In this document: positions 7,555-32,018 of the stretch, piece by piece
Layout of the letters: every line of letters starts with the position of its first letter
Numbering within the stretch: position 1 is the first letter of the stretch
Assembly: GCF_045037415.1 (NCBI RefSeq)
Contig: NZ_CP173438.1
Origin: Escherichia coli
Lineage (GTDB): Bacteria; Pseudomonadota; Gammaproteobacteria; Enterobacterales; Enterobacteriaceae
DNA: 64,000 bases
Strand: one strand, 5' to 3'
Translations under genes and position numbers: made by a program
Notes under the pieces: generated by a model
Told to the model about the DNA's origin: nothing
Seen by the model: the letters and a program-made list of their open reading frames with translations, nothing else
Databases searched by the model: none

Positions 7555-7828
7555 ATTATTATTCAATAAATACGCTTAAATAATTATTAATTTATTATTA
7601 AACCTGCCCCGAAAATTATTATTTGGCAGGTTTAATTTCTTAATGAAAATACAACCCACAAAATTGCAACATTTAAACAACAAAACAGCATCTAATATGG
7701 CGCTATTCATCATTAATGATTTATTATTTGGGATATGATCGTTTTTTGTTGATCTTCTTCACAGATTATAGCCATTTCATGGATAGAATAACCCTACCTT
7801 CAACTGACACAGAAAAAGGTAAAGGTAA

Positions 7829-7933
7829 ATGGAAAATAATAACCGCTTAATGCCTCATATAAGGCGGACAACCCATATCATGAAGTTTGCCCATCGTAAT
7901 AGTTTTGACTTTCATTTTTTTAATGCCCGCTAG
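7829..7933 (+). CDS. speFL: speF leader peptide (ornithine-sensing arrest peptide), 34 codons
   Basis: atg at 7829 translates to MENNNRLMPHIRRTTHIMKFAHRNSFDFHFFNAR then TAG; below the ORF-track size cutoff; sits ~300 nt upstream of speF. Confidence 0.8.
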   Translation: MENNNRLMPHIRRTTHIMKFAHRNSFDFHFFNAR

Positions 7934-8242
7934 TCTTCTGACTAAAGGGCACCCCAGCGTACAGGTCTCCCTGACTTTAAGCATTACAGGTTAATACCTG
8001 TATCCCTCGGTGCTCATATACTGCTAACCCTTTTAAACTCTAAATAATTCGAGTCGCAGCACATGCAACTTGAAGTATGACGAGTATAGCCAGTTACCGG
8101 GCTGGTCTGGGTTATTGCATCTGCAAAAAGCAAACTACTGATTTATTTATCAGCGGTGGGGTTTTGCTTTTTTCCGGCGTGATCAATTTCTCCTTTGAGA
8201 AATTGAGGACCTGCTATTACCTGAAATAAAGAGATGAACAAA

Positions 8243-10441: not shown

Positions 10442-11757
10442 GTCAGGCGAAATCGAACAAAATGGGTGTCGTTCAGTTAACCATACTGACGATGGTCAAC
10501 ATGATGGGCTCCGGTATCATCATGCTGCCGACAAAGCTTGCCGAAGTCGGGACAATCTCAATTATCTCCTGGCTGGTGACAGCCGTAGGCTCAATGGCAC
10601 TGGCATGGGCATTCGCAAAATGCGGTATGTTCAGCCGTAAATCAGGAGGTATGGGCGGTTATGCCGAGTATGCTTTCGGTAAATCCGGTAACTTTATGGC
10701 GAACTATACCTACGGCGTCTCGCTGCTGATTGCTAACGTCGCGATTGCTATTTCGGCGGTTGGTTACGGCACCGAACTGCTCGGCGCGAGTTTGTCGCCA
10801 GTGCAGATTGGTCTTGCGACCATCGGGGTGCTGTGGATTTGTACCGTGGCTAACTTTGGTGGTGCGCGCATTACCGGGCAAATCAGTAGCATTACCGTGT
10901 GGGGGGTCATTATTCCGGTGGTAGGCCTGTGCATTATCGGCTGGTTCTGGTTTAGCCCGACGCTTTACGTTGATTCCTGGAATCCGCATCATGCACCCTT
11001 CTTCAGTGCGGTAGGTTCTTCCATCGCTATGACGCTGTGGGCTTTTCTTGGTCTGGAGTCTGCGTGTGCGAATACTGATGTAGTGGAAAACCCGGAACGT
11101 AATGTGCCAATCGCGGTACTCGGCGGTACGTTAGGTGCGGCGGTGATTTATATCGTCTCCACCAACGTGATTGCCGGGATTGTGCCAAATATGGAGCTGG
11201 CAAATTCAACGGCACCATTTGGTCTGGCCTTCGCGCAGATGTTCACGCCGGAAGTGGGTAAAGTCATTATGGCGCTGATGGTGATGTCCTGCTGCGGTTC
11301 GCTGCTTGGCTGGCAGTTCACCATTGCCCAGGTGTTTAAATCTTCATCTGATGAAGGCTACTTCCCTAAAATTTTCTCCCGTGTAACCAAAGTGGATGCA
11401 CCGGTGCAGGGAATGTTGACCATTGTGATTATCCAGAGCGGGTTGGCGCTGATGACGATTAGCCCGTCGCTAAACAGTCAGTTCAACGTGCTGGTTAACC
11501 TGGCCGTGGTGACTAATATCATTCCGTATATTCTGTCAATGGCGGCATTAGTCATTATTCAGAAGGTCGCTAATGTGCCCCCCTCAAAAGCGAAAGTTGC
11601 AAACTTTGTTGCTTTTGTTGGCGCGATGTACAGCTTTTATGCGCTGTACTCATCCGGGGAAGAAGCCATGCTATACGGTTCCATCGTGACCTTCCTCGGT
11701 TGGACACTGTATGGTCTGGTCTCACCACGCTTTGAACTGAAAAATAAACACGGTTAA
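10438..11757 (+). CDS. potE: Putrescine-ornithine antiporter
   Basis: 439 aa APC-family permease; start overlaps speF stop (ATGA). Confidence 0.95.
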   Translation: MSQAKSNKMGVVQLTILTMVNMMGSGIIMLPTKLAEVGTISIISWLVTAVGSMALAWAFAKCGMFSRKSGGMGGYAEYAFGKSGNFMANYTYGVSLLIANVAIAISAVGYGTELLGASLSPVQIGLATIGVLWICTVANFGGARITGQISSITVWGVIIPVVGLCIIGWFWFSPTLYVDSWNPHHAPFFSAVGSSIAMTLWAFLGLESACANTDVVENPERNVPIAVLGGTLGAAVIYIVSTNVIAGIVPNMELANSTAPFGLAFAQMFTPEVGKVIMALMVMSCCGSLLGWQFTIAQVFKSSSDEGYFPKIFSRVTKVDAPVQGMLTIVIIQSGLALMTISPSLNSQFNVLVNLAVVTNIIPYILSMAALVIIQKVANVPPSKAKVANFVAFVGAMYSFYALYSSGEEAMLYGSIVTFLGWTLYGLVSPRFELKNKHG

Positions 11758-11770
11758 TTAAGCAAAGCAA

Positions 11771-11800
11771 AAAAGGGCGATCTTCCGACCGCCCTTTTTC
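11771..11800. terminator. Bidirectional intrinsic terminator between potE and pgm
   Basis: A-run, stem gggcg...cgccc, then T-run (aaaagggcgatcttccgaccgcccttttt). Confidence 0.6.
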
Positions 11801-11813
11801 TTATTTGATATGT

Positions 11814-13454
11814 TTACGCGTTTTTCAGAACTTCGCTAACAATTTCAACCGCTTCTTTCTCAATCTGCTTGCGATGTTCTTCACCAAGGAAGCTTTCGCA
11901 GTAGATCTTATATGCGTCTTCCGTGCCTGACGGACGCGCGGCGAACCAGCCGTTGTCAGTCATCACTTTCAGACCGCCGATAGAAGCGCCATTACCCGGT
12001 GCCGCCGTCAGACGCGCGGTGATCGGGTCACCTGCCAGGGTGCTGGCGCTCACCATTTCCGGAGACAGCTTAGACAACGCCGCTTTTTGTGCGGAAGTCG
12101 CTGCTGCCTGCAAACGGTTATAGCTCGGCGCACCAAAGCGTTTTGCCAGTTCGTTATAGTGTTCCTGCGGGTTCTTACCGGTGACAGCGGTGATTTCCGC
12201 CGCCAGCAGACACATAATGATGCCGTCTTTATCGGTGGACCACGGCGTGCCGTCGAAACGCAGGAAGGAAGCCCCTGCGCTCTCTTCGCCGCCAAAGCCG
12301 AAGCTGCCGTCGAACAGACCATCAACAAACCATTTGAAACCTACCGGGACTTCTACCAGCTTACGGCCCAAGTCATTGACCACACGGTCGATCATCGCAG
12401 ATGAAACCAGCGTTTTACCGACAGCAACATCTTTGCCCCACTGCGGACGATGCTGGAACAGGTAATTGATCGCCACCGCCAGGTAGTGGTTCGGATTCAT
12501 CAAACCTGCCGGAGTGACGATACCGTGACGGTCATAATCCGGGTCGTTAGCAAACGCCAGATCGAACTTATCACGCAGTGCCAGCAGGCCCGCCATCGCA
12601 CACTCGGAGGAGCAGTCCATACGGATCGCGCCGTCTTTATCAAGGTGCATAAAGCGGAAGGTTTGATCGACCTGATCGTTAACAATAGTCAGGTTGAGGT
12701 TGTAATACTCGCCAATACGCTTCCAGTATTCGATACCGGAACCGCCCAGCGGATCAACGCCAAGCGTCAGGCCCGCTTTCTGAATCGCCGCCATATCAAC
12801 GATATCGGCCAGCCCTTCCACAAACGGCTGCACCAGATCCTGCTCTTTCACATGACCGGATGCCATCGCTTCGTCGAGGGAGATACGCTTCACGCCTTTC
12901 AGGCCATCAGCCAGCAGTGCGTTTGCTCTGTCTTCCACCACTTTAGTGACGTTGGTATCAGCCGGGCCACCATTTGGCGGATTGTACTTGATACCACCAT
13001 CTTCCGGCGGGTTATGGGACGGTGTAATCACGATACCGTCTGCCAGCGGGCCACCTTTTTTATTGTGAACCAGAATGGCATTGGAAATGGCAGGTGTCGG
13101 AGTGAAGCCATTGTTTTCCTGCACAATGACATCAACGCCGTTCGCTGCCAGCACTTCCAGTACGGAAATGAACGCAGGCTCGGACAGGGCGTGAGTATCT
13201 TTACCCACATAGCAAGGGCCAGTGATGCCGTTTTTCGCACGTTCTTCAGCAATTGCCTGAGCGATCGCCAGAATGTGCGGCTCGTTAAAGCTGTGGCGCG
13301 CTGCACTGCCACGGTGACCGGAAGTACCGAATTTCACCGCGTGCTCCGCATTCCCTGCTTCTGGTTTCAGTACATAATATTGCGCCGTCAGTTGGGCGAC
13401 GTTAATCAAATCACTCTGTTGTGCAGGTTGGCCTGCACGATTGTGGATTGCCAT
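11814..13454 (-). CDS. pgm: Phosphoglucomutase
   Basis: ORF 11814..13505 trimmed to internal ATG giving [10 protein letters not shown]..., 546 aa; phosphohexomutase motifs (TSGHRG). Confidence 0.9.
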
Positions 13455-19119: not shown

Positions 19120-20784
19120 TTACTCGCCTACTTTCGCCCAGGTATCACGCAGCCCAACGGTGCGGTTAAATACCGGTTTTTCCGCCGTAGAATGGCGGCT
19201 GTCGAGGCAGAAGTAACCTTCACGCTCAAACTGGAATGCTTTACCCGCAACCGCATCTTTCAGCGACGGTTCAGCAAAGCCCTGTTTGATCACCAGCGAT
19301 TCCGGGTTAATCACCGACAGGAAATCATCCGCAGCACCAGGGTTCGGCACGCTGAACAGACGGTCATACAAACGGATTTCAACCGGCAGCGCATGTGCCG
19401 CGCTCACCCAGTGAATAACACCTTTGACTTTACGACCATCTGCCGGATCTTTGCTTAAGGTGTCGGCGTCATAAGTACAGAAGATGGTGGTGATATTGCC
19501 TTCGGCATCTTTCTCCACGCGTTCTGCCTTAATGACGTAAGCATTACGCAGACGCACTTCTTTACCCAGCACCAGACGTTTGTACTGCTTGTTAGCTTCT
19601 TCGCGGAAATCGGCGCGATCGATCCAAATCTCACCGCTAAATGGCACCTGACGGCTGCCCATTTCCGGTTTATTCGGATGGTTCGGCATGGTAACCATTT
19701 CGCCTTCGCCCTGGTAGTTTTCGATAACCAGTTTCACCGGATCGATAACCGCCATTGCGCGCGGCGCATTTTCGTTGAGATCTTCACGGATGCAGGATTC
19801 CAGTGACGCCATCTCAATGGTGTTGTCCTGCTTGGTCACACCAATGCGTTTGCAGAACTCACGAATAGAAGCCGCAGTGTAACCACGACGACGCAGACCA
19901 GAAATGGTCGGCATACGCGGGTCATCCCAGCCTTCAACGTGCTTGTCGGTCACCAGCAGGTTCAGCTTACGCTTGGACATCACAGTGTATTCCAGATTCA
20001 GGCGCGAGAATTCGTACTGGCGCGGGTGAACAGGAATGGTGATGTTGTCCAGTACCCAGTCGTACAGACGACGGTTGTCCTGGAACTCAAGCGTACACAG
20101 AGAGTGCGTAATACCTTCCAGCGCATCGCTGATGCAGTGGGTGAAGTCGTACATCGGGTAGATGCACCACTTGTTGCCAGTCTGGTGGTGTTCAGCAAAC
20201 TTAATGCGGTACAGCACCGGATCGCGCATCACGATAAACGGCGAAGCCATGTCGATTTTCGCACGCAGGCAGGCTTTACCTTCTTCAAAACCGCCGGTAC
20301 GCATTTTCTCGAACAGCGCCAGGTTCTCTTCAACGCTGCGATCGCGGTACGGGCTGTTTTTACCCGGCTGCGTCAAGGTGCCGCGGTATTCGCGGATCTG
20401 TTCCGGCGTCAGTTCATCAACGTACGCCAGGCCTTTATTGATCAGTTCGATCGCATAGGCGTGGAGCTGATCAAAATAATCGGAGGAGTAACGGACGTTA
20501 CCAGACCAGTGAAAACCTAACCACTCTACGTCGTTTTTGATCGAATCGACATACTCGATATCTTCTTTTACCGGGTTAGTGTCGTCGAAACGCAGGTTGC
20601 ACTGGCCTTTATAGTCCTGGGCGATCCCGAAGTTCAGGCAGATAGATTTCGCATGGCCAATATGCAGATAGCCATTCGGCTCCGGCGGGAAACGGGTGTG
20701 TACTGTGGTGTGCTTACCACTGGCCAGATCTTCATCGATGATCTGACGGATAAAGTTAGTCGGGCGGGCTTCTGCCTCACTCAT
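19120..20784 (-). CDS. glnS: Glutaminyl-tRNA synthetase
   Basis: 554 aa; class I HIGH motif ([11 protein letters not shown]) and VMSKR (KMSKS-type). Confidence 0.95.
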
Positions 20785-21003
20785 CGTGGATTCCTCAAAG
20801 CGTAAACAACGTATAACGGCGTATGATCTTATAAGCGGGACAGGCTGACAACTGTTAGTTAGCGAAAAAATGGTTTTGCGTAAGATATTGGGGCGTTTTC
20901 TGCGCTACTGCCAGCAGATCCTCGCGCTGGAAACGTAAGGCCAAACGTCGCCAGCCTGACGCATTTATTAAATTTCCGGATGAGCTGGCCGCAGAGTCGT
21001 AGA

Positions 21004-21765
21004 TTAGTCGGCTATGATTAAACGCGTCGACAAGGACGCAAGCGTTCTACGCGTCTGCCCATCAAGCTGACTATCCGTAATAATCTCTGTCAGTTCATTA
21101 AGATGCGCGATATTAAACAGCGACCATGAACCGTATTTTGAGCTGTCAGCCAGGAGAATTTTGCGCGAAGCATGCGCGATAAGATCGCGTTTTAGTGCGG
21201 CTTTCTCTTCCGTGGGTGCTGTAATACCCTTTTCAAGATCCCAGCTGTTACAGCTTAAAAATGCCACGTCCGGCCAGGTATTTTGCAGCAATTTACGACC
21301 ATGTTCGCCAATGCAGGACTGGCTGGAGTCGTCAATACGTCCGCCGATAATCGTCACTTCAATTTGCTTGAATTCAGCCAAAAAAAGCGCGATATGCAGG
21401 TCGCTTGTGATCACGCGAAGCGGTAAATGTGTAATCTGCCGCGCAAGTTCAATCATTGTCGTACCGGCATCAAGGACGACGGAATCCCCCGCTTTGACCA
21501 TTGACGCCGCTGCGCTGGCGATGGCATGTTTTTCCGCCAGGCTGCGCTGCATTTTCTCATGGGTAGTCGGTTGGGTAGGAATAAACCGGTTGAGAGTCAC
21601 ACCGCCGTGTGTACGGCTGATAACACCCTGCTCATCGAGTTTTATCAGGTCTCGACGAATCGTAGCCGGCGACGCATTGGTTACCGCCACCAGCTCATCT
21701 ACGGTGACCAGATTATGGCTTTTCAGGTAATCCATGATCTGCTCTAACCGGTTATATCCCTTCAT
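21004..21765 (-). CDS. DeoR-family transcriptional regulator
   Basis: 253 aa; N-terminal HTH ([20 protein letters not shown]), DeoR-type C-terminal sensor domain; start 1 nt after upstream stop. Confidence 0.85.
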
Positions 21766-21766
21766 T

Positions 21767-22753
21767 TTATTCTCGCGAAATCTGCATTGCTAACTGGATG
21801 GAAACTGCCATGCTCTCAGACTTGGCTTTTCCTGTCCAGGCAATATCAAACGCGGTGCCGTGGTCGGCAGAAGTGCGAATAAATGGCAACCCGGCGGTGA
21901 TATTCACCCCATCATAAAATCCAAGCAGTTTTAAAGGGATATGCCCCTGATCGTGGTACATAGCCACTACCATATCGAATAGCCCTTCATGGCATTGCAT
22001 AAACACGGTATCTGGCGGGCACGGGCCAGTAACATCAATATCTTCGGCCTGCATTGCTTCAATCGCAGGCGCGATAATCTCGATTTCCTCAGTGCCGAAT
22101 AAACCATGTTCCCCTGCATGTGGATTTACACCCGCCACGGCAATACGCGGACGCTCAATACCAACACGTTTCAGGAAGTGGTTCGCAACTCGAATAACCG
22201 TTTTGACCCTTTCACCATTCAAAGTATCCAGGAATTTACGCAGTGAGATGTGAGTCGAAATATGGATAACCTTGAGCTTCTCGGTATAGAGCACCATCGC
22301 GTACTCTTTGCTGCCGGTAAGATGGGCCAGCAATTCCGTATGCCCCGGATAGTTATGCCCGCCAAGATGCAGCGCTTCTTTATTCAGCGGCGCAGTGGCT
22401 ATGGCTTTCACCTCGCCTGATAAGGCCAGAGCCGTTGCACGTTTGATACAGCGATACGCTAAATCGCCTGCCACAGCCTGTACCACTCCGGGTGTCAGCG
22501 CATCGGGGTTAGCCAGCGGCTCATCCATCACGTTAATCACGCCGGGAGCAAAATGGGCGTCGCACACCTTTTGAATGACGCGTAACTCTGCCTGCGGCGT
22601 GATATTCATCGCCATAATACGTCGCAGCGTGCGCACACAGCCCACCACCACCACCGGGGCACCAGCAAGCCCGGCTTCGCTCAGGGATTTAATAATGATC
22701 TCCGGGCCAATACCCGCCGGATCGCCCATCGTTACCGCAATAATATTATTCAC
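21767..22753 (-). CDS. PdxA-family NAD-dependent dehydrogenase (PdxA2-like)
   Basis: 328 aa; [15 protein letters not shown] and [17 protein letters not shown] motifs; GTG start with gaggag RBS inside the kinase 3' end. Confidence 0.85.
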
Positions 22754-23981
22754 TACGCTTCTCCTCGATAAAATTCAGAACCTGATGCAACGTGGTCTCA
22801 TCGCCAAACCCACCGGCTTTCGTCATCACCGAACGGGACCAGACGCCGCCCAGAAAGTGACCGTATGGAACGCATTGCGCCACCTTCCCCGTAATACGAA
22901 ATCCGGTCGCGCCTAACGCACTGGCTGTTGCCATTGCGACATCACCACCAGAGAGATAAAGCGCATCGGGCATTGCGCAAAGCAGAACTTGCCGGGTAAG
23001 TTCGCCAAGAAACCGGCAAATTTTTTCCCCAAGTGCAGCGCGACTCATCTGCCAACGCTGGCAAAGGGTGTCGATCTGATGCCTTGCTACAGAATCGTTA
23101 CAGGTGTGGACAATACAGTGGTCGCCTTTCTGCAAGGCCTGCACAATACGCGCGTCATAGTCACTGGCATTGCCTGCCAGAATGTGTTCAACATCGACGT
23201 ATATCTGTGTGATACGTGGGTGTGAATGAAGTGTGGCGATCTGCCGTTGAGCGATTTCGCTCATTGAACCAATAATGGCCAGCACGGTGGGTGGCGGCAT
23301 AATCGCGGAGCGCCGGGCAACGGCATCACAAATACCAGCGGAGCCGACCAGCAGCAGCGGTTGTTTAGCCTGCATCACAGCGGCAGCGATGCGATCCAGG
23401 TCGCTGTCCGTCTGCGCATCTATCACGCCAATCCACGGTTGCTCATAAGACAAATGGCTGAGCTGAGAAACCGTAACGGGCTGGCATGGAATGGCCGTCT
23501 GCAACCGGATGATGTCCGCAATTCGGGCGCTCAATACCGGGGTTTTCGGATCGCTAGCAAACTCGGTTTCCGTTATCCGCACACCGTTTACCCAACACTC
23601 ACCGGCCACTGTGGTCCTTCCCGCCTGAGGAAATGCGGGGGCAACCACTGCGCCCGTTATACCGCATGCCTTCATCAGGGCTTCAATTTCTGCGCCGATA
23701 TTGCCTCGCAGCGTGGAATCTATCTTTTTAATCACGAGCGGCGGGTTATTCGCCAGAGGGAGATGACTCATCAGCGAGGTTATTTTCATCGCCGCCAGCT
23801 TAGGATCCATCGCCCGACTGTCGCTGTTAATCACCCATACGCTGGCATCACCGCGATAAGGCATTTCAAAGGCCACATCAACTGTATGCCCCACCTGCGC
23901 CAGGCTTACCCCCGCGTCGTTGGCTCCCGTGAAATCATCGGCAACGATGAGAATGCTCGGCTTAGTGATTCCCTTTTCCAT
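22746..23981 (-). CDS. DUF1537 four-carbon acid-sugar kinase family protein (OtnK/DtnK-like)
   Basis: ORF starts at TTG 24023; best start is ATG 23981 (ggag RBS 5 nt upstream); ILIVADDFTGANDAG N-terminal motif. Confidence 0.8.
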   Translation of the reverse strand: MEKGITKPSILIVADDFTGANDAGVSLAQVGHTVDVAFEMPYRGDASVWVINSDSRAMDPKLAAMKITSLMSHLPLANNPPLVIKKIDSTLRGNIGAEIEALMKACGITGAVVAPAFPQAGRTTVAGECWVNGVRITETEFASDPKTPVLSARIADIIRLQTAIPCQPVTVSQLSHLSYEQPWIGVIDAQTDSDLDRIAAAVMQAKQPLLLVGSAGICDAVARRSAIMPPPTVLAIIGSMSEIAQRQIATLHSHPRITQIYVDVEHILAGNASDYDARIVQALQKGDHCIVHTCNDSVARHQIDTLCQRWQMSRAALGEKICRFLGELTRQVLLCAMPDALYLSGGDVAMATASALGATGFRITGKVAQCVPYGHFLGGVWSRSVMTKAGGFGDETTLHQVLNFIEEKRSE

Positions 23982-24019
23982 CATCACTCCAGGTTGTTTT
24001 ATGATAACAATGATTATAT

Positions 24020-24033
24020 TCAATCATGATTGA
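24020..24033. promoter_or_regulatory. Candidate operator palindrome 1 in divergent promoter
   Basis: Perfect 14-bp palindrome tcaatcatgattga upstream of the kinase operon. Confidence 0.4.
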
Positions 24034-24116
24034 TTAAATGTGAGCAAGCTCAAGTTATTAATCACTCGAATAAATTATAAAATTAGACCATGTTACGTAG
24101 GCTACGGCATTTTGAA

Positions 24117-24132
24117 TGATTGAATTCAATCA
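24117..24132. promoter_or_regulatory. Candidate operator palindrome 2 in divergent promoter
   Basis: Perfect 16-bp palindrome tgattgaattcaatca ending 19 bp before the ADH GTG start; shares the TGATTGA half-site with palindrome 1. Confidence 0.4.
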
Positions 24133-24150
24133 CCAGAAGAGAGGTTATTT

Positions 24151-25308
24151 GTGGTAATTATCAATAGCACGATACTGAGCGGCGCAGGCGCTATCCCTTC
24201 CCTGACGTCGCTCTTACCCGACATCAGAAAAATGCTGCTGGTCACTGACCGTAATATTGCGCAGCTCGACGGTGTGCAGCAGATTCGCGCCTTACTGGAA
24301 AAGCACTGCCCGCAGGTTAACGTTATCGATAATGTGCCCGCAGAGCCCACGCATCATGATGTGCGCCAGCTAATGGATGCCCTTGGCGATGCCTCTTTTG
24401 ATGTGGTGGTCGGGATCGGCGGTGGCAGCGTGTTGGATGTGGCGAAGCTGCTATCGGTGCTTTGCCATCCACAATCACCGGGGCTGGATGCGCTGCTTGC
24501 GGGTGAAAAACCGACTCAGCGGGTGCAATCATGGTTGATTCCTACAACCGCCGGAACCGGCTCAGAAGCCACGCCGAATGCGATTCTGGCAATCCCTGAG
24601 CAAAGCACGAAGGTGGGTATTATTTCCCAGGTGCTGTTACCAGACTATGTGGCGCTTTTCCCGGAACTGACCACCAGTATGCCCGCGCATATTGCGGCGT
24701 CCACGGGCATTGATGCTCTTTGCCACTTACTGGAGTGTTTTACCGCGACCGTGGCAAATCCGGTCAGCGATAACGCGGCGCTGACTGGGTTAAGTAAACT
24801 TTTCCGGCACATTCAACCCGCCGTGAACGATCCTCAGGATCTGCGCGCAAAACTGGAAATGCTGTGGGCGTCTTACTATGGCGGCGTAGCGATAACCCAT
24901 GCGGGCACGCATCTCGTTCATGCGCTCTCCTACCCGTTAGGTGGCAAATATCATCTGCCGCATGGCGTCGCGAATGCCATCTTGCTGGCGCCGTGCATGG
25001 CGTTTGTTCGCCCCTGGGCGGTCGAGAAATTTGCCCAGGTCTGGGATTGCATTCCCGATGCGGAAACCGCCCTGAGCGCGGAAGAAAAATCTCATGCCCT
25101 GGTGACCTGGTTACAGGCATTAGTCAATCAACTCAAGCTACCCAACAATCTCGCGGATCTCGGCGTACCGCCAGAGGATATTGCCTCTCTGAGCGAGGCG
25201 GCACTGAACGTGAAGCGCCTTATGAACAATGTGCCGTGCCAGCTTGATCTACAGGACGTACAGGCCATTTACCAAACACTGTTTCCGCAACATCAATTTA
25301 AGGAATAA
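24151..25308 (+). CDS. Iron-containing (group III) alcohol dehydrogenase family oxidoreductase
   Basis: 385 aa; GIGGGSVLDVAK and TTAGTGSE motifs; GTG start with RBS agagagg. Confidence 0.85.
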   Translation: MVIINSTILSGAGAIPSLTSLLPDIRKMLLVTDRNIAQLDGVQQIRALLEKHCPQVNVIDNVPAEPTHHDVRQLMDALGDASFDVVVGIGGGSVLDVAKLLSVLCHPQSPGLDALLAGEKPTQRVQSWLIPTTAGTGSEATPNAILAIPEQSTKVGIISQVLLPDYVALFPELTTSMPAHIAASTGIDALCHLLECFTATVANPVSDNAALTGLSKLFRHIQPAVNDPQDLRAKLEMLWASYYGGVAITHAGTHLVHALSYPLGGKYHLPHGVANAILLAPCMAFVRPWAVEKFAQVWDCIPDAETALSAEEKSHALVTWLQALVNQLKLPNNLADLGVPPEDIASLSEAALNVKRLMNNVPCQLDLQDVQAIYQTLFPQHQFKE

Positions 25309-25311
25309 ATC

Positions 25312-26199
25312 ATGCCGAAAACCATTGAAGGTGTATTAACCGCTATCGTCACCCCGTTTACCGCGACCGGCAGTCTGAATATCCCGGCGTTAAAAGTGCA
25401 GGTGAATCGTCAACTGGAAGCGGGTAACGCGATTTTTTGCGGCGGCACCAACGGCGAGTTTTTTGTGTTGAATGAACAGGAGAAGCTCAGCGTTACGCAA
25501 ACCTGCGTGGATGAAGTGGCTGGTCGTGCGCCAGTCGTGGCACACATTGGCGAGATCTCTACGCGCGAAACGATTCGTCTGGGTCAGCAGATTGAAAAAC
25601 TTGGCGTAGATGCCGTGTCGGTCATTGCCCCTTACTTCGTACCGCTGAAACAGGAAGAGTTGATTGCGCATTACAGCGCAATTGCCGACACACTGAGCAT
25701 TCCGATGTTTCTCTATAACATCCCGGCCCGCACTGGCAATACGATCCAGCCAGAAACCGCGCGTGCTCTGGCGTCGCACCCCAATATCATTGGGATTAAA
25801 GACAGCGACGGAAGCGACGAAAGCCTGAAGGGTTTTCTCGATGCGGTGCGCGACATTGACGGCTTTAATGTGCTCAACGGCCCGGATTCGCTGATCCATA
25901 AAGGGTTTGTCGAGGGATGTTCAGCCTGTATCTCTGGGCTCGCCAACGTCGCGCCGCGAGAAATCAATGCCATCTGGTCTCGCTTCCATGCCGGTGATAT
26001 TGAAGGGTCTTATGAAGCACAGGAGAGTGTAACGGGCCTGCGTACCGATCTTTATAAAGTAGCATTCTCCCCGGCTGCGGTGAAAAAAGCGTTGCAGCTT
26101 ATGGGGCATGATGTTGGTGATAGCCGCTACGCGGTTAATTTCACGCCTGAACAGATCAGCGAGATTCAACAAATTATTCGTCATTATAACATTAATTAA
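25312..26199 (+). CDS. DapA/NAL-family class I (Schiff-base) aldolase
   Basis: 295 aa; TPF...GTNGE and GIKDS (Schiff-base lysine) motifs; 3 nt after ADH stop. Confidence 0.85.
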   Translation: MPKTIEGVLTAIVTPFTATGSLNIPALKVQVNRQLEAGNAIFCGGTNGEFFVLNEQEKLSVTQTCVDEVAGRAPVVAHIGEISTRETIRLGQQIEKLGVDAVSVIAPYFVPLKQEELIAHYSAIADTLSIPMFLYNIPARTGNTIQPETARALASHPNIIGIKDSDGSDESLKGFLDAVRDIDGFNVLNGPDSLIHKGFVEGCSACISGLANVAPREINAIWSRFHAGDIEGSYEAQESVTGLRTDLYKVAFSPAAVKKALQLMGHDVGDSRYAVNFTPEQISEIQQIIRHYNIN

Positions 26200-26258
26200 A
26201 TTAACTCTATTATCCAGCCCGCTATAAAGTTTAGATAAAGAGAATAAAGGATTACCCC

Positions 26259-27017
26259 ATGTTTTTGTGGTTTATGCAGCCAGATATCTGGCTCACTTTA
26301 ATTACCCTCACCTTTCTGGAAATTATTCTTGGGGTGGATAATATTATTTTTCTTTCACTGGTGGTGGCAAAACTTCCGTTATCACAACAAAATATGGCGC
26401 GTAAACTGGGTTTAAGCTGCGCGATGATTATGCGGATATTATTGCTGATATCCATTGCGTGGCTTTCACATATTACCCAGCCGCTTTTTACCGTGCTGAC
26501 GCTGGAGATTTCGTTCCGCACGTTGATTCTGCTCGGGGGCGGGCTGTTCCTGATTTATAAAGCGATACAGGAGATACGCGAAGAGCTGTCGCCCGCGCAG
26601 GAAGACGAACATGGCAGCGGATCGCGGCAACTGTCGTTGTGCGGTGCCATTGTACAGATAATGCTGCTCGATATCGTGTTTAGCCTGGATTCGGTGATCA
26701 CCGCCGTCGGCCTTTCTCAGCATATATTTATCATGATTGCCGCCGTAATGATTGCCGTCGGTGTCATGATGTTTGCGGCGAAAACAATTGGTGATTTCGT
26801 TAACGCCACGCCGTCAATAAAAATACTGGCGTTAACCTTTTTATTGTTTGTCGGTGTATTGCTGGTTGCCGATAGTCTCAACATTCATATTGCCAAAGAG
26901 TATCTCTACTTCGCGATATTTTTCTCATTAAGTGTTGAGACACTCAATATTATCCGTGAAAGAAAAAATAAAAAAGTTTCGACATTGATCGAAACGCATG
27001 AATCGCACTCGCATTAA
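26259..27017 (+). CDS. TerC-family integral membrane protein
   Basis: 252 aa; paired TerC motifs ILGVDNIIF and DIVFSLDSV; visibly more AT-rich than neighbours. Confidence 0.8.
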   Translation: MFLWFMQPDIWLTLITLTFLEIILGVDNIIFLSLVVAKLPLSQQNMARKLGLSCAMIMRILLLISIAWLSHITQPLFTVLTLEISFRTLILLGGGLFLIYKAIQEIREELSPAQEDEHGSGSRQLSLCGAIVQIMLLDIVFSLDSVITAVGLSQHIFIMIAAVMIAVGVMMFAAKTIGDFVNATPSIKILALTFLLFVGVLLVADSLNIHIAKEYLYFAIFFSLSVETLNIIRERKNKKVSTLIETHESHSH

Positions 27018-27052
27018 TAAATCTATTACCAACTTTAAGATGGAGTCTAACT

Positions 27053-28222
27053 ATGTCTGTAGCCCTTATTCGTGACGGCGTCATCCGTCCATCCGAAAAC
27101 GATTCGCATGTGCTTACCGCCATGCTGCCCTCGTCCTGCCCGCAAAACCACGCGGCGAATATTCTGCCTTTGCCGGATGGCGCGTTAATGTGCGTCTGGT
27201 TTGCGGGAACGCAGGAAGGTATTGCCGATATTTCTGTCTGGGGATCGCGATTGCCCGCTGGCGGAATGCAGTGGAGCGATGCGGCCAAACTTTCCCACGA
27301 TGACACGCGTTCAGAGCAAAACCCGGTGCTGTTTCTCGCGCCGGATAACGTGCTGTGGCTCCTATGGACCGCACAAATATCCGGTAATCAGGACACCGCC
27401 ATCGTCCGCTACCGTAAGTCAGACGACCTCGGACAAACCTGGGGCGAGATTGCCACCCTGCTTGATAAACCCGGTACGTTCATTCGACAGCCAATCACGG
27501 TGCTTGATAACGGCAACTGGCTGCTGCCCGTCTTTTATTGCCGTACCCAACCCGGCGAAAAATGGGTCGGCAATGATGATATCAGCGCAGTGAAAATTTC
27601 CGCTGACGGTGGTCACTCCTGGCGCGATGTCGAGGTGCCGCAAAGTCTCGGCTGTGTTCATATGAATATCACAATGTTGCACGACGGTACGTTGGTTGCT
27701 CTCTTTCGCAGCCGTTGGGCAGACAACATCTATATCAGCCATTCAGTGGACAACGGCGAGAGTTGGTCGGTGCCGCAAGCAACCGAATTGCCCAACAACA
27801 ATTCGTCTATTCAGGTAACGACGCTTGCCAGCGGCGAACTGGCGCTGGTGTACAACGCGATGAGTGCGGCAGGCGCAGTAGAACGTCGCGCGTCGCTTTA
27901 TGACGAAATCGACGATGGCGACGACAGCCGCAAAGAACCGACAGCCGTCGGACGCTCCGCTTTCTGGGGTGCCCCACGCGCGCCGATGACGGTAGCGATT
28001 TCTGCCGATGGTGGGAAAAGCTGGTCGTGGCGGCGCAATCTCGATGAAGGCGACGGCTACTGCATGACCAACAATTCCCTGGAAAAGCTAAATCGTGAGT
28101 TCTCCTACCCCAGCATCAAACAAAGCCCGGACGGTACGCTACATATCGCTTACACCTGGTGGCGTCAGGCCATCAAGTACGTACGCATCTCCCCCGAGTG
28201 GGTTAAGGGGCAGGCATCATGA
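27053..28222 (+). CDS. BNR/Asp-box repeat protein, sialidase-fold beta-propeller, no signal peptide
   Basis: 389 aa; four Asp-boxes (SDDLGQTW, SADGGHSW, SVDNGESW, SADGGKSW); N-terminus lacks a signal peptide. Confidence 0.8.
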   Translation: MSVALIRDGVIRPSENDSHVLTAMLPSSCPQNHAANILPLPDGALMCVWFAGTQEGIADISVWGSRLPAGGMQWSDAAKLSHDDTRSEQNPVLFLAPDNVLWLLWTAQISGNQDTAIVRYRKSDDLGQTWGEIATLLDKPGTFIRQPITVLDNGNWLLPVFYCRTQPGEKWVGNDDISAVKISADGGHSWRDVEVPQSLGCVHMNITMLHDGTLVALFRSRWADNIYISHSVDNGESWSVPQATELPNNNSSIQVTTLASGELALVYNAMSAAGAVERRASLYDEIDDGDDSRKEPTAVGRSAFWGAPRAPMTVAISADGGKSWSWRRNLDEGDGYCMTNNSLEKLNREFSYPSIKQSPDGTLHIAYTWWRQAIKYVRISPEWVKGQAS

Positions 28223-28689
28223 TTATCGGTAATCTCAACCATTTGTCGCTGGCGGGGCTTCCTGCCTGGGTGAGAAATATTCTGCTGCGCCCGGAGTGTT
28301 CGTTATCGGCGTTATCCACCAGAGAGGACGGTCGCTGGCAACCTGAAGGATGTCGGTGGTTCTGCTCGCTGGGAACTTCAGACACGCAACCCGCCGAACT
28401 TCGCCATACGGAGTATCACCATCTATGGGCCGATATACAGGTGGTGATTACTGGTTGTGAGGGCATTAATGCGGGAACGCGGCCCATCGCTCGCGAAAAC
28501 GATGAAGAACGTAAGCCCGATCTGTTTATCGCCCCATCCCCTGAAAACAGTGTCGCCATCACCCTACACGCCGGTGATTTCGCCGTCTTTATGCCTGAGG
28601 AACCTCACCAGGCACTGTGCGCAATTGGCACGGCTACTTCAATACGCAAAGCGGTCTTTAAAGTACCGCGCGACATGCTGGAAGCCTAA
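28219..28689 (+). CDS. YhcH/YjgK/YiaL (DUF386) family protein, NanQ-like
   Basis: 156 aa; GDFAVFMPEEPH and KVPRDMLEA resemble the YhcH family as I recall it; ATGA overlap with the upstream stop. Confidence 0.8.
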   Translation: MIIGNLNHLSLAGLPAWVRNILLRPECSLSALSTREDGRWQPEGCRWFCSLGTSDTQPAELRHTEYHHLWADIQVVITGCEGINAGTRPIARENDEERKPDLFIAPSPENSVAITLHAGDFAVFMPEEPHQALCAIGTATSIRKAVFKVPRDMLEA

Positions 28690-28702
28690 AAGGAGAGAAA
28701 AA

Positions 28703-29983
28703 ATGACAATGGAAATGATCCTGGCATTAGGAATACTGGTCCTGATGATCGTGCTGATCATGTCGGACAAAATGCCTTTTGGCGCACCGCCACTGCTTGC
28801 GTGTTTATTGCTGGTTGTATCGGGACTTTCGACCGTTCAACAGGCTTTTGCCGGATTCGTCAATCCAAGCGTGGTGATGATTGCAGGGTTTATGGTGGTC
28901 ATGGCGGCGCTACAAAAAACCCGGCTTATCAGCAACGTTAAATCTGCGATGATAAGCCTGGTCAATAAAGGCAGTTACCGCAGCTATGGGCTGTTATTAG
29001 TCATTGTTATGCTGGGTGCCAGTCTTGCCGGCACCGGAGCGACCGGTTATTACGTGCTAATTCTGTCGCTGGTATCCACCATTCCGTACAGTAAAAAGCT
29101 ACCAACATCGAAATTAATGATGCCCCTGGGATTTGCCACCAACCACCCGCTTCTTCCTATCAATCTCGCGCTTCTCTTTGGCGTTACGGCGACCGTACTC
29201 GAAACCGCGGGGTTTCATCAGGCGATTTCGATGGGGCGCTTTGCGCTGGTGAATCTCATCATGTCAGCGGCTTTCCTCGCATGGAGTCTTATTGCCTACC
29301 GTTTTCTTCCGGATCATCCCATTGCGGATGCTTCCGAGGATGCGCTGGCGGCACGCGAGGAAACGTTTAACGCCCTTCCTGCCTGGAAAGAATATTGCAC
29401 TATTGCCGCATTCGCTGTCAGCGTTATCGGCATGATGCTAATGAACATTCTGGGAAATATCGCCTTCGTTATTCCGGGTCTTGCGGGTGCGTTTGTTCTG
29501 ATGATCGATGTACTGGACTTCAAAGAAGTTCGCGATCATATGGGGGCTCCGGTCATTTTAATGATGGCGGGGGTGATCGGTGTAGCTGATGCACTGGCGG
29601 GCACCGGCTTTACGGCGATGGTTGGCGATGCCGTTGCAGGTGTGCTCGGTTCTGGCGTCTCACCGTTTGTATTTATTGTCGCCTTTGCTTTGCTTACCAG
29701 TACCTGCGCCACCTTCACGGGTTCGAATATGGGGTCAGTATATATTTTTGCCCCCATCGCCATTGCCGCCTGTACTAGCCTTGGGCTTAACCCGACCGCT
29801 GCCGCGATTGCGGTGGTGATTTCTGGCTGGAATGGCGGCTATATGCCTATTGACGGAATGCCAGCCATGATCCTCGGAATGGGGAAATACAAACTTCCCG
29901 AATTCTGGGTGTTCTCTGTACCAATGTATCTCATCCGCATTCTGGCGCTTTGTGCAGGCGCTGTTTTTATCTTCCCAATGTAA
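28703..29983 (+). CDS. Polytopic permease, ion-transporter-superfamily-like (family unresolved)
   Basis: ORF 28457..29983 trimmed to ATG 28703 (aaggagag RBS); about 12 hydrophobic segments, 426 aa. Confidence 0.75.
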   Translation: MTMEMILALGILVLMIVLIMSDKMPFGAPPLLACLLLVVSGLSTVQQAFAGFVNPSVVMIAGFMVVMAALQKTRLISNVKSAMISLVNKGSYRSYGLLLVIVMLGASLAGTGATGYYVLILSLVSTIPYSKKLPTSKLMMPLGFATNHPLLPINLALLFGVTATVLETAGFHQAISMGRFALVNLIMSAAFLAWSLIAYRFLPDHPIADASEDALAAREETFNALPAWKEYCTIAAFAVSVIGMMLMNILGNIAFVIPGLAGAFVLMIDVLDFKEVRDHMGAPVILMMAGVIGVADALAGTGFTAMVGDAVAGVLGSGVSPFVFIVAFALLTSTCATFTGSNMGSVYIFAPIAIAACTSLGLNPTAAAIAVVISGWNGGYMPIDGMPAMILGMGKYKLPEFWVFSVPMYLIRILALCAGAVFIFPM

Positions 29984-29991
29984 TCTCAGAC

Positions 29992-30026
29992 AAAAAAAGC
30001 GGCAGAGAAGATCCCTGCCGCTTTTT
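29992..30026. terminator. Bidirectional terminator between island permease and nagE
   Basis: aaaaaaa-gcggcag-agaagatcc-ctgccgc-ttttt. Confidence 0.55.
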
Positions 30027-30033
30027 ATTGTTG

Positions 30034-30060
30034 GATGCGACGCTGCCGCGTCGCATCAGA
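30034..30060. repeat. REP-like palindrome
   Basis: gatgcgacgc-tgcc-gcgtcgcatc perfect inverted repeat resembling REP units. Confidence 0.4.
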
Positions 30061-30071
30061 CATAAAGCAGA

Positions 30072-32018
30072 TTACTTTTTGATTTCATACAGCGGTGTTT
30101 GACCCGCCACAACATGGCCCTGAGCTTTAATGATAAGGCCGCTGAAATCATCGATATTGCTGCAAACCACCGGGCTAATCATCGAACGGGCGTTAGCGTT
30201 CAGGTAATCCAGATCCATTTCCAGAATCGGTTGCCCTGCGCTTACCTGCGCGCCCTCTTCCACCAGACGTTTAAAGCCTTTACCTTCCAGCGCTACGGTG
30301 TCGATACCCATATGGACGACGATCTCCGCGCCTTTTTCGGTTTCCAGACAGAACGCGTGGTTGGTGTTGAAGATTTTCACGATTGTTCCTGCGGCTGGTG
30401 ATACGACGATTTTATCTGTCGGTTTCACCGCCACACCGTCACCCACCGCTTTGCTGGCGAATGCTTCGTCAGGAATCTGATCCAGTGCCACAACATCCCC
30501 GGTAATCGGCGATACCAGCTCCGCGATAGATACCGCGTTTGGTACAGCCTGCGGTTTTGCTACAGGAGCGGCAGTTGCCGGAGTTGCTTCAGCTGACGCA
30601 GCGGCTACCGGACCACGGGCAACGACTTTCTTCATCGCATCGCCGATGGATTCTGCTTTCGCGCCAACAATCACCTGAATAGTCTGTTTGTTCAGTTTTA
30701 CTACCCCAGAAGCACCCAGACGTTTACACATCGCATCGTTGACGCGAGCTGAGTCAACCACGGTAAGGCGCAGACGAGTAATACAGGCGTCAATGGCTTT
30801 CAGGTTGTCAGTACCGCCAACCGCAGCAATATAGTTGGTTGCCAGTTGATTGAGACCTTCTTCAGTATTGCTGTTAGCCTCTTCAGTAACGATCTCGTCT
30901 TCTTTATCTTCACGACCCGGCGTTTTCAGGTTGAACATGCGGATAACCAAACTGAACACCACGAAGTAGATAGCGAAGAAGACAACCCCCATCACCAGCA
31001 GCATCCAGACGTTCTGGCTGGCGGCCGGCAGGTTATACATCAACGCGTAGTCGATAGCCCCCGCAGAGAAAGAGAAGCCGGCATGGATACCCAGCAACGT
31101 TGCCACAAACAGGCTGATACCGGTCAGCAGTGCGTGCAGGAGGTACAGCAGCGGTGCAAGGAACATGAACAGGAATTCCAGCGGCTCAGTCACACCGGTC
31201 AGGAACGCAGTAACAGCAACAGAAAGCAGCATCCCGCCAACCATCGGACGACGCTCTTTCGGTGCTGCGAAGTACATCGCCAGCGCCGCACCCGGCAGGC
31301 CGAACATCATAATCGGGAAGAAGCCGGACATGAACATCCCCGCGGTGCCGTCACCGGCATAGAAGCGGTTGATATCACCGTGGAAAACCGTTCCCGCCGC
31401 GTTGGTGAATTCACCAATCTGGAACCAGGCGATGGTGTTCAGCACCTGATGCAGACCGGTTGGGATCAGCAGACGGTTGATGAAACCAAAGATACCGGAA
31501 CCCAGCGCGCCCGCAGAAACGATCCACTCGCCGCCTGCATGGATAGCGTGCTGTACCGGTGGCCAGACGTAACCAAAAATGGCCGCCAGCACCAGACAGA
31601 AGAAGCCGGTGGCTATCGGCACAAAGCGTTTGCCGCCGAAGAAGCTCAGGAAGTCCGGCAGTTTAATATCGGACCAACGGTTATAGGCTGCGCCACCAAC
31701 CAGACCGGTAATGATACCCGCCAGTACACCCATGTTAATTTCTGGGTTGATGGTCACCATCGCTTTGGTTAACACAAAGTAACCTACCGCACCCGCCAGT
31801 GCCGCCGCACCTGCGCTGTCTTTCGACCAGCTGGATGCCACGCCGATGGCGAATATTAATGCGAGGTTATCAAAAATCGCACCGCCCGCCTGGGCAATAA
31901 ACGCAACGTTAAGTAAATCTGGCTGACCGAATCGCAGCAACAGCGCCGCCACCGGCAGCACCGCGATAGGGAGCTGTAACGCCCTACCGAGTCGCTGGAA
32001 AAAACCTAAAATATTCAT
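30072..32018 (-). CDS. nagE: PTS N-acetylglucosamine-specific EIICBA
   Basis: 648 aa; EIIC membrane domain followed by EIIB and EIIA domains. Confidence 0.95.
   Translation of the reverse strand: MNILGFFQRLGRALQLPIAVLPVAALLLRFGQPDLLNVAFIAQAGGAIFDNLALIFAIGVASSWSKDSAGAAALAGAVGYFVLTKAMVTINPEINMGVLAGIITGLVGGAAYNRWSDIKLPDFLSFFGGKRFVPIATGFFCLVLAAIFGYVWPPVQHAIHAGGEWIVSAGALGSGIFGFINRLLIPTGLHQVLNTIAWFQIGEFTNAAGTVFHGDINRFYAGDGTAGMFMSGFFPIMMFGLPGAALAMYFAAPKERRPMVGGMLLSVAVTAFLTGVTEPLEFLFMFLAPLLYLLHALLTGISLFVATLLGIHAGFSFSAGAIDYALMYNLPAASQNVWMLLVMGVVFFAIYFVVFSLVIRMFNLKTPGREDKEDEIVTEEANSNTEEGLNQLATNYIAAVGGTDNLKAIDACITRLRLTVVDSARVNDAMCKRLGASGVVKLNKQTIQVIVGAKAESIGDAMKKVVARGPVAAASAEATPATAAPVAKPQAVPNAVSIAELVSPITGDVVALDQIPDEAFASKAVGDGVAVKPTDKIVVSPAAGTIVKIFNTNHAFCLETEKGAEIVVHMGIDTVALEGKGFKRLVEEGAQVSAGQPILEMDLDYLNANARSMISPVVCSNIDDFSGLIIKAQGHVVAGQTPLYEIKK

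Follow-up and report, generated by a model that had tools for sequence, protein, structure and literature searches.

Two overlapping genes in a 64,000-nucleotide (nt) stretch of Escherichia coli DNA (contig NZ_CP173438.1 of RefSeq assembly GCF_045037415.1; hereafter the window) encode a 389-amino-acid (aa) protein with a sialidase fold and a 156-aa protein of the DUF386 family. A previous reading made from the sequence alone (the sequence-only reading) had outlined both open reading frames (ORFs), which we find where it had placed them, on the plus strand and with ATG starts (Table 1), and had proposed that their products process an imported sialoside or a dehydrated or anhydro-sialic acid. 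The two genes lie in a nine-gene island between glnS and nagE, whose other members point away from sialic acid. The identical 1.6-kb stretch carrying the pair is present in 1047 of 5426 complete E. coli genomes (19%), in one copy each and always on the chromosome, where it is annotated as 'sialidase family protein' followed by 'YhcH/YjgK/YiaL family protein'. Pfam BNR_2 (PF13088) covers the 389-aa protein (hereafter BNR_2) from end to end (E = 3.5e-65), and this match, together with the identical annotated pair in 1047 genomes, shows that the gene pair is not a chance ORF observation.

The profile match also keeps BNR_2 within the sialidase fold, where the sequence-only reading had put it. Two further features of that reading hold up: four strict S-x-D-x-G-x-x-W Asp-boxes begin at residues 123 (SDDLGQTW), 183 (SADGGHSW), 231 (SVDNGESW) and 317 (SADGGKSW), and the N-terminus (MSVALIRDGVIRPSENDSH...) has no hydrophobic stretch, in keeping with an intracellular protein free of a signal peptide. 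A single-sequence phmmer search of the PDB gave marginal matches only (E ~0.09), and a 40-sequence profile was used instead. The top sequence-profile matches were to the GH181 sialidase Amuc_1547 (8hls, 8axi and 9eob; E ~4e-17 to 1e-15), and the nearest structures are GH33 sialidases.

To compare the active site with that of GH33 enzymes, catalytic residues were mapped by hhalign against the sequence of human Neu2, checked against structure 1snt, and by HMMER alignments; the hhalign alignment to Neu2 ends at residue 239, and the equivalences of Arg309 and Tyr352 come from HMMER. Conservation was assessed in 88 orthologs from fetched loci. The outcome was mixed. Tyr352 falls at the position of the nucleophile (the Tyr of GH181 structure 9eob) and is kept in 87 of the 88 orthologs, Arg219 corresponds to the second arginine of the triad (Neu2 Arg237) and Arg309 to the third, and Asn90 aligns with Neu2 Asn86. 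Asp59 aligns with the acid/base Asp46 of Neu2, with a gap close by in the alignment, and is invariant, as is Glu55. No RIP or FRIP motif was found in the 389-aa protein, consistent with the earlier impression that a classic FRIP motif was not obvious; NHA stands in place of RIP, with the invariant His33 aligned to the RIP arginine (Neu2 Arg21), so that the GH33 triad lacks its N-terminal member. The Tyr/Glu pair is incomplete as well: the first strand of blade 4 (SLGCVHMN, residues 198–205), on which the glutamate partner of the tyrosine would sit, holds neither Asp nor Glu, and the position is taken by His203 in the HMMER alignment or by Cys201 in that of hhalign. The protein thus has the sialidase fold, yet lacks two defining catalytic features of GH33.

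What the active site has in their stead is itself highly conserved. His33, Glu55, Asp59, Arg86, Arg145, His203, Arg219, Arg221, Asn248 and Asn250 are strictly invariant in the 88 orthologs, and Asn249, Arg278, Arg279, Arg309, Arg348, Glu349, Tyr352 and Arg371 are each kept in at least 97%. The conserved arginines 86, 145, 219, 221, 278, 279, 309, 348 and 371 give the propeller an Arg-rich centre that, judged from these alignments, would fit an anionic and probably dianionic ligand. We also considered a putative 2-His-1-carboxylate metal site made of His33, His203 and Glu55; position 203 is Gln in distant homologs. An insertion at residues ~270–305 (window 27860–27970; AGAVERRASLYDEIDDGDDSRKEPT...) is specific to this ortholog group and missing from distant BNR_2 homologs. 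Model confidence is lower here (pLDDT 75–88). Arg278, Arg279, Ser281–Asp284 and Ile286 are each kept in 97% or more of the orthologs, and the insertion could act as a lid or as a second element that binds a carboxylate.

The DUF386 gene is translationally coupled to that of BNR_2. At their junction (GCATCATGATTATC / GCATCATGATT) the stop codon TGA and the start codon ATG share letters as ATGA (28219–28222), as had been described, with AAGGGG just 5' of it. The resemblance to YhcH/NanQ proposed in the sequence-only reading survives for the family and fails for the ortholog: the 156-aa protein scores 94.9 bits against the family model TIGR00022 (cut-off 45.5) and 90.6 bits against the NanQ equivalog NF040884 (cut-off 160). 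Its closest solved relative is 9jrr, deposited as a 'DUF386 domain-containing protein' (E = 4e-23), the sequence of which we take to resemble E. coli YjgK/TabA; Haemophilus influenzae YhcH, represented by 1jop among the PDB relatives, is more distant (E = 1e-11), and 'YhcH-like' therefore holds at the family level only. YhcH opens Neu5Ac (N-acetylneuraminic acid) and so presents this cyclic ulosonic acid in its open-chain form to a lyase of the N-acetylneuraminate lyase (NAL) family (PMC8141875). By analogy, we propose that the DUF386 protein could act as an anomerase or ring-opener for the substrate of the aldolase encoded in the same island.

The genes around the pair were delimited with the help of strain SK1144, whose identical island is annotated in RefSeq, and of NCBIfam scans (Table 1); coordinates in SK1144, where the DeoR locus is at 7952–8713, convert to the window by adding 13052. 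In a 2026 paper on strain BEN2908, exactly these ORFs form the uncharacterised region 'GR 6' of extraintestinal and avian pathogenic E. coli, homologs of which are clustered in Sinorhizobium meliloti (PMC12928451).

Table 1. Genes and other features of the island, in window coordinates. Fractions give the number of BNR_2 loci in which a partner was found.
Feature	Coordinates	Strand	Basis and remarks
DeoR/GlpR-family transcription regulator	21004..21765	-	RefSeq annotation; 49/87 loci
PdxA2-type D-threonate 4-phosphate dehydrogenase (decarboxylating, to dihydroxyacetone phosphate (DHAP) and CO2)	21767..22753	-	NF002891; 65/87 loci
DUF1537 four-carbon acid-sugar kinase, named D-threonate kinase DtnK	22746..23981	-	NF047819, RefSeq start; 62/87 loci
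Divergent promoter region	24024..24150		Perfect 16-bp palindrome TGATTGAATTCAATCA at 24117-24132
Iron-containing alcohol dehydrogenase (Fe-ADH)	24151..25308	+	NCBIfam, family level; 65/87 loci
DHDPS/NAL-family class I pyruvate aldolase	25312..26199	+	69/87 loci
TerC-family membrane protein	26259..27017	+	NCBIfam YkoY/YjbE subfamilies, below cut-off
BNR_2 protein	27053..28222	+	ATG start, 389 aa; cytoplasmic (predicted), six-bladed sialidase fold, non-canonical active site
DUF386 (YhcH/YjgK/YiaL) protein	28219..28689	+	ATG start, 156 aa; translationally coupled to BNR_2
SLC13/DASS-family anion permease	28703..29983	+	TIGR00785, E=3.6e-15 (below cut-off); RefSeq 'SLC13 family permease'
Likely bidirectional terminator shared with nagE	29992..30030		G+C-rich hairpin AAAAAAAGCGGCAGAGAAGATCCCTGCCGCTTTTTATTG, flanked by an A-run and a T-run

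The two adjacent genes at the heart of the minus-strand arm, which overlap by 8 nt (22746–22753), belong to a known type of pathway. PdxA2 scores 679 bits against the equivalog NF002891 (cut-off 583) and DtnK 531 bits against the equivalog NF047819 (cut-off 450), and they are accordingly assigned as a D-threonate kinase and D-threonate 4-phosphate dehydrogenase pair. On the plus strand, Fe-ADH matches the NCBIfam models for ErcA, lactaldehyde reductase and 4-hydroxybutyrate dehydrogenase, all below cut-off, with E-values of ~1e-63 to 1e-66. 4-Hydroxybutyrate dehydrogenase interconverts succinate semialdehyde, a C4 aldehyde-acid, and its omega-hydroxy acid. The aldolase falls below the cut-offs of the models for DapA (189 of 206 bits), NanA and 2-keto-3-deoxygluconate (KDG) aldolase. 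In the sequence-only reading it figured as a NAL-family lyase and a neighbour suggestive of sialic acid: membership of the NAL/DHDPS family stands, and identity with NanA does not, the scores being 142.3 bits against NF003164 (cut-off 281) and 108.6 bits against TIGR00683 (cut-off 382). Among the aldolases of such clusters, Tyr135 and the Schiff-base Lys163 are invariant, and Arg140, the counterpart of DapA Arg138, is present in 65 of 71; the residue at this position of NanA is presumably Leu. DapA Arg138 binds the carboxylate of aspartate semialdehyde, another C4 aldehyde-acid, which is condensed with pyruvate to a C7 diacid, and Arg140 thus points, as a sequence match, to a C4 aldehyde-acid as the partner of pyruvate here.

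From Fe-ADH onwards the plus-strand genes form one tight operon, with spacings of 3, 59, 35, −4 and 13 nt and, past the last gene, a hairpin and T-run. The start of the SLC13 permease was set at the ATG at 28703, which has a Shine–Dalgarno sequence, AAGGAGAG, and lies 13 nt past the DUF386 stop; a 508-aa ORF from GTG 28457 (to 29983) was rejected as an over-extension that starts inside the DUF386 gene. In the divergent promoter region the palindrome TGATTGAATTCAATCA is accompanied by half-sites at 24020–24033 and 24058. Twelve loci of other genera (Klebsiella, Atlantibacter, Cedecea, Mangrovibacter, Budvicia, Vibrio and Gilliamella) have the pattern TGATTnAwwTnAATCA in the corresponding intergenic position, and the palindrome is likely a candidate operator of the DeoR regulator. 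At the other end, where SLC13 and nagE converge, the hairpin GCGGCAG...CTGCCGC delimits the island on the right. Consensus scans for promoters and terminators performed no better than on shuffled sequence. The TerC gene has the lowest G+C of the island (0.44), and besides this dip the G+C profile of the island showed no foreign-DNA signature. An Rfam scan of 20000–30500 at E ≤ 1 returned nothing credible, including no yybP-ykoY-type (Mn-type) riboswitch ahead of TerC. TerC, within this catabolic operon, takes the slot that an SSF transporter has in most other genera; elsewhere, in locus L008, a gene with TerC and DUF475 Pfam matches lies ~6 kb from the BNR_2 cluster.

The association of these genes extends well beyond E. 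coli. A scan of one genome per species gave 80 loci, which together with loci fetched earlier made a set of 87, and in these the partners were sought by tblastn with the island proteins. The aldolase is the most frequent partner of BNR_2, ahead of Fe-ADH and PdxA2, the kinase, DUF386 (54 loci) and the DeoR regulator (Table 1), while the SLC13 permease accompanies it in only 8 and TerC in 7. De novo clustering added an SSF transporter and a 226-aa short-chain dehydrogenase/reductase (SDR), each in 61 of the 87 loci, the latter not in E. coli. The commonest layout has DeoR–PdxA2–DtnK divergent from FeADH–DHDPS–SSF–BNR_2–DUF386–SDR, and the variant with TerC in the SSF slot, SLC13 last and no SDR is shared by E. 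coli, the Klebsiella oxytoca group, Kluyvera and Aeromonas. Outside the Enterobacterales we recovered the association in Firmicutes, in Alpha- and Betaproteobacteria and on one fungal-looking contig, and it is kept in a BNR_2 subfamily only 41% identical, where an M20 peptidase stands beside such a distant homolog. DUF386 is absent from the clusters of Agrobacterium fabrum and Ralstonia solanacearum, both of which have BNR_2. In the R. solanacearum megaplasmid cluster (L090), a 766-aa 'hypothetical protein' (5115–7415) lies between the alcohol dehydrogenase and SSF in the usual place of the kinase and PdxA and, judged from this position, is probably a DUF1537–PdxA fusion. The fungal-looking contig, which carries Fungal_trans transcription factors, holds, besides a BNR_2 gene (~49% identical), one gene of the DHDPS family and one for PdxA, together with fragments of MFS (L006, 8024–13403), and the module may exist in fungi.

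Transporters vary by taxon and are mostly of carboxylate type, among them DASS, TRAP (on a Firmicute-like contig), TTT (a 37%-identical BNR_2 member comes after TctBA), ACS-type MFS and, in Aeromonas, a KdgM porin. The others are SSF, which includes the R. solanacearum cluster, and Opp-type ABC systems, found on an alphaproteobacterial contig and on the pAt plasmid of A. fabrum. The carboxylate-type transporters, like the Arg-rich centre of BNR_2, suit an anionic and probably dianionic ligand. The hosts include Pectobacterium, Dickeya, Erwinia, Pantoea, Kosakonia, Rahnella, Gilliamella, the Bacillus pumilus group, Paenibacillus and Bradyrhizobium, and the cluster is plasmid-borne in Rhizobium (128 records), Sinorhizobium (78), Pantoea, Ralstonia and Agrobacterium. 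They are overwhelmingly plant-associated or pectinolytic bacteria, not mucosal users of sialic acid, a range that speaks for an acid sugar of plant pectin.

Two departures from the common layout bear on the role of BNR_2. A Citrobacter-like contig (L091, 4681–12264) has DeoR–PdxA–DUF1537 divergent from FeADH–DHDPS, with an aldolase ~80% identical to that of E. coli, and lacks BNR_2, DUF386, SSF and SDR; in their place are a D-2-hydroxyacid dehydrogenase and an MFS protein of the D-galactonate-transporter subfamily, which suggests an alternative precursor for the same aldolase. After this finding we gave up the notion of BNR_2 as an obligatory core enzyme and treat it as part of an exchangeable upper module. 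In Pantoea rodasii-type loci (L034, L035, L038, L039 and L071, at ~6250–11850) there is a second BNR_2 paralog, accompanied by SSF and SDR alone. Adjoining this paralog are a tartrate dehydrogenase (TIGR02089, 575 bits, cut-off 470) and a TtdR/YafC-like LysR regulator, an adjacency that could be a link to C4 diacids or mere lineage-specific synteny; we treat it as weak evidence because it is confined to one closely related group (Pantoea spp. and one record labelled Enterobacter cancerogenus).

An aldolase, Fe-ADH, a C4 acid kinase and PdxA2 together imply that the substrate of the aldolase is a 2-keto-3-deoxy C7 diacid. Sialidase-fold enzymes are known catalysts for ketosides of 3-deoxy-2-ulosonic acids. 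3-Deoxy-D-lyxo-hept-2-ulosaric acid (Dha), which is present in the pectic polysaccharide rhamnogalacturonan-II (RG-II) and in some green-algal walls, is such a diacid, and its ketosides are cleaved by sialidase-fold enzymes of family GH143 (PMC6811678). Tentatively, and with what we judge to be nearly an even chance of being right, we therefore place BNR_2 at the entry, in the cytoplasm, of a catabolic pathway for an acidic 3-deoxy-2-ulosaric sugar, most simply the Dha of RG-II, encoded by this conserved and uncharacterised island. What is established here is the fold with its residue substitutions, the way the operon is built, the association of the genes across phyla and the assignment of DtnK and PdxA2 to their families; the identity of the substrate, the reaction of BNR_2, probably that of a ketosidase, and every enzymatic step of the route are inferred.

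The SLC13/DASS permease would import an anionic substrate. BNR_2 would bind the ulosaric acid by its Arg-rich centre and release Dha from a small ketoside, with Tyr352 as nucleophile, Asp59 as acid/base and His203 instead of Glu as the partner of the tyrosine; candidates for the small imported conjugate are a fragment in which Dha is 2,3-linked to galacturonic acid (Dha-2,3-GalA) or another ketoside, and chain D is reportedly freed from RG-II by brief heating (10.64898/2026.03.13.711244). The DUF386 protein would open the Dha ring, as YhcH does that of Neu5Ac, and the aldolase would cleave the C7 diacid, through a Schiff base on Lys163, to pyruvate and 2,3-dihydroxy-4-oxobutanoate. Fe-ADH would reduce the latter to D-threonate, DtnK would phosphorylate this, and PdxA2 would convert D-threonate 4-phosphate to DHAP by oxidative decarboxylation. 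For the D-threonate part we relied on NCBIfam names, a review (PMC10971088) and general knowledge.

The stereochemistry was followed by our own Fischer-projection analysis, in which D-lyxo stands for C4-OH left, C5-OH left and C6-OH right. Cleaving the D-lyxo C7 diacid between C3 and C4, reducing C4 and counting anew from the former C7 leads to a product with its C2-OH on the left and its C3-OH on the right; it is D-threonate, the very enantiomer and diastereomer named by the kinase and dehydrogenase models. The same bookkeeping led us to reject other substrates: Neu5Ac and ketodeoxynononic acid (KDN) would give N-acetylmannosamine (ManNAc) and mannose, 3-deoxy-D-manno-octulosonic acid (Kdo) would give D-arabinose, 3-deoxy-D-arabino-heptulosonic acid (DAH) or its diacid an erythro C4 unit and keto-deoxy-glucarate a C3 semialdehyde, and conjugates of ascorbate-derived L-threonate have the wrong enantiomer.

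Several observations weigh against this assignment. The reaction of BNR_2 is the weakest step of the proposed route: with the first arginine and the glutamate lost, classical retaining sialidase catalysis cannot be assumed, the Citrobacter variant means that the substrate of the aldolase can be reached without BNR_2, and small-solute transporters (DASS, TRAP, TTT and SSF) suit a monosaccharide better than a glycoside, which weakens the case for a ketosidase. Dha is rare, with one residue per RG-II, and so widespread a dedicated cluster is somewhat surprising. E. coli has no RG-II-degrading enzymes and would depend on cross-feeding or spontaneous release. The SDR (61 of 87 loci, not E. coli) and TerC have no role in the Dha scheme, nor does it explain the M20 peptidase beside the distant homolog or the tartrate dehydrogenase beside the Pantoea paralog. 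Finally, the kinase of the E. coli island is reported to be only 40% identical to the characterised DtnK (PMC12928451).

In an alternative reading the pathway and the kind of substrate are the same, and BNR_2 is not a glycosidase but acts on a monomeric form of the ulosaric acid, for example by hydrating or opening an anhydro, lactone or 2,3-unsaturated derivative or by serving as an anomerase or ring-opener. The transporters are mostly small-carboxylate types; the catalytic Glu and the first Arg are gone while His33, His203 and Glu55 are invariant, which suggests other acid/base or metal chemistry; the Citrobacter variant works without BNR_2; and in R. solanacearum and A. fabrum, which have BNR_2 and no DUF386, it might supply the open-chain form itself. 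NanM, an unrelated propeller, acts as an anomerase and ring-opener for Neu5Ac. We know of no sialidase-fold enzyme with such a primary role, however, and Tyr352, Asp59, Arg219 and Arg309 are retained, judged by the alignments, at the very positions of glycosidic catalysis. In the Rhizobiaceae and the distant subfamily, moreover, the transporters are ABC systems of Opp type, whose family-5 binding proteins usually serve ligands above monosaccharide size, and a second anomerase would be redundant wherever DUF386 is present. We regard this alternative as less likely than a ketosidase.

Somewhat less probable again is that the island serves another acidic compound than Dha, a plant, algal or microbial sugar acid or conjugate degraded via a C4 acid, or that DtnK and PdxA2 serve a purpose of their own, such as the recycling of 4-hydroxy-L-threonine connected with vitamin B6 that has been suggested for this island (PMC12928451). 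The substrate is reached wholly by reasoning from the genes, Dha is rare in nature, and the SDR, TerC, the M20 peptidase and the Pantoea tartrate dehydrogenase are as ill at ease in a simple Dha scheme as noted above; DUF1537 kinases can, according to the passages of PMC12928451 and PMC10971088 that cite Thiaville 2016, phosphorylate 4-hydroxythreonine. Yet the kinase and PdxA2 accompany the aldolase and Fe-ADH in 62–65 of the 87 loci, in several gene orders and with an apparent kinase–PdxA fusion in Ralstonia, which argues for one pathway rather than two. DtnK and PdxA2 both exceed the D-threonate equivalog cut-offs, the DapA-like arginine of the aldolase points to a C4 aldehyde-acid, and Neu5Ac, KDN, Kdo, DAH and keto-deoxyglucarate each have the wrong carbon count or stereochemistry.

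The proposal of the sequence-only reading, an intracellular sialidase or an enzyme of anhydro- or dehydro-sialic acids that would work on imported sialosides together with an anomerase like NanQ and a lyase like NanA, can claim GH33 sialidases as the nearest structures, a DUF386 family that includes the Neu5Ac anomerase (PMC8141875), a lyase within the NAL/DHDPS family and an island common in extraintestinal pathogenic E. coli (PMC12928451), but is the least likely of all and very improbable, given that the lyase is far under the NanA cut-offs and has a DapA-type arginine, that the island has no ManNAc kinase or epimerase and instead an Fe-ADH, a D-threonate kinase and a D-threonate 4-phosphate dehydrogenase that could not process ManNAc, that neither the RIP Arg nor a Glu to pair with the Tyr is there, and that the cluster ranges over plant- and soil-associated taxa, occurring mainly in Pectobacterium, Dickeya, Pantoea, Rhizobium, Agrobacterium, Ralstonia, the Bacillus pumilus group, Gilliamella and taxa like these.

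BNR_2 is, in sum, a sialidase-fold enzyme whose catalytic set is altered and whose gene sits in a catabolic operon for what is probably a new pathway of the cytoplasm. In a bolder form, which we hold to be possible and rather doubtful, BNR_2 proteins of the COG4692 type would be a distinct, unclassified branch of the sialidase superfamily, with His in place of the RIP Arg and no Glu to pair with the Tyr, and the E. coli member would be a cytoplasmic Dha ketoside hydrolase opening a new route from Dha to pyruvate and D-threonate and on to DHAP. If the Dha reading is right, the label 'sialidase family protein' misleads in Enterobacterales, rhizobia, Ralstonia, Bacillus and the fungal-looking contig, and hides a new specificity as well as an altered set of catalytic residues. 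In the literature that was searched we found no paper on Dha catabolism and none on Dha linked with D-threonate, and relative to that literature the island would encode the first catabolic route for Dha and explain the fate of a signature RG-II sugar. Where the D-threonate of the DtnK/PdxA2 pathway comes from in nature is, as far as we know, unclear, and Dha would be a source of it, a physiological feedstock for these enzymes. About one-fifth of E. coli, notably extraintestinal pathogenic lineages, would then scavenge a pectin breakdown product freed by gut Bacteroides or by acid, a nutritional trait that would part island-positive strains from K-12-like ones and matter for cross-feeding on dietary pectin. 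According to a 2026 preprint (10.64898/2026.03.13.711244), the pathways by which other gut microbes would use RG-II sugars once released, Kdo for instance, are unconfirmed. The island enzymes are small, soluble and easily expressed, and the hypothesis is hence directly testable.

Set against known enzymes, BNR_2 is 15–19% identical to GH33 sialidases and KDNases (Micromonospora viridifaciens 1eut, human Neu2 1snt and Aspergillus fumigatus KDNase 4m4n), from which it differs in having His33 for the RIP Arg, Cys201 or His203 for the Glu, extra invariant arginines, the insertion at ~270–305 and a genomic context that is not sialic-acid catabolism. BT1020 of Bacteroides thetaiotaomicron (5mqs), a GH143 enzyme of the RG-II utilisation apparatus, is five-bladed and fused to a GH142 arabinofuranosidase in a protein of 1081 residues (PMC6811678), whereas BNR_2 is six-bladed, single-domain, cytoplasmic and without the Glu; it is a weaker match to GH143, closer to GH33, and is not assigned to that family. 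The alignment with GH181 Amuc_1547 of Akkermansia spans the blade-4 Arg and the nucleophile Tyr.

As a system, the island resembles the E. coli nan system (NanT, NanQ/YhcH, NanA, NanK and NanE) in its order of transporter, DUF386 anomerase, class I NAL/DHDPS lyase and kinase. Unlike nan, it has a sialidase-fold enzyme within the cytoplasmic operon, its DUF386 protein and lyase fall short of the NanQ and NanA cut-offs, and the fragment released would not be ManNAc: it would be a C4 aldehyde-acid, on its way to DHAP by reduction, phosphorylation and decarboxylation. The D-glucarate/galactarate pathway (GarL, GarR and GarK) offers a likeness in chemistry, a keto-deoxy diacid being split into pyruvate and an aldehyde-acid that is reduced to a hydroxy-acid and phosphorylated. 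The island would be a version of Gar longer by one carbon that ends in the known DtnK/PdxA2 route from D-threonate to DHAP (PMC10971088), and it differs from Gar in that its aldolase belongs to the DHDPS rather than the HpcH family, its reductase is an Fe-ADH, it has no dehydratase, and entry would be through a sialidase-fold enzyme.

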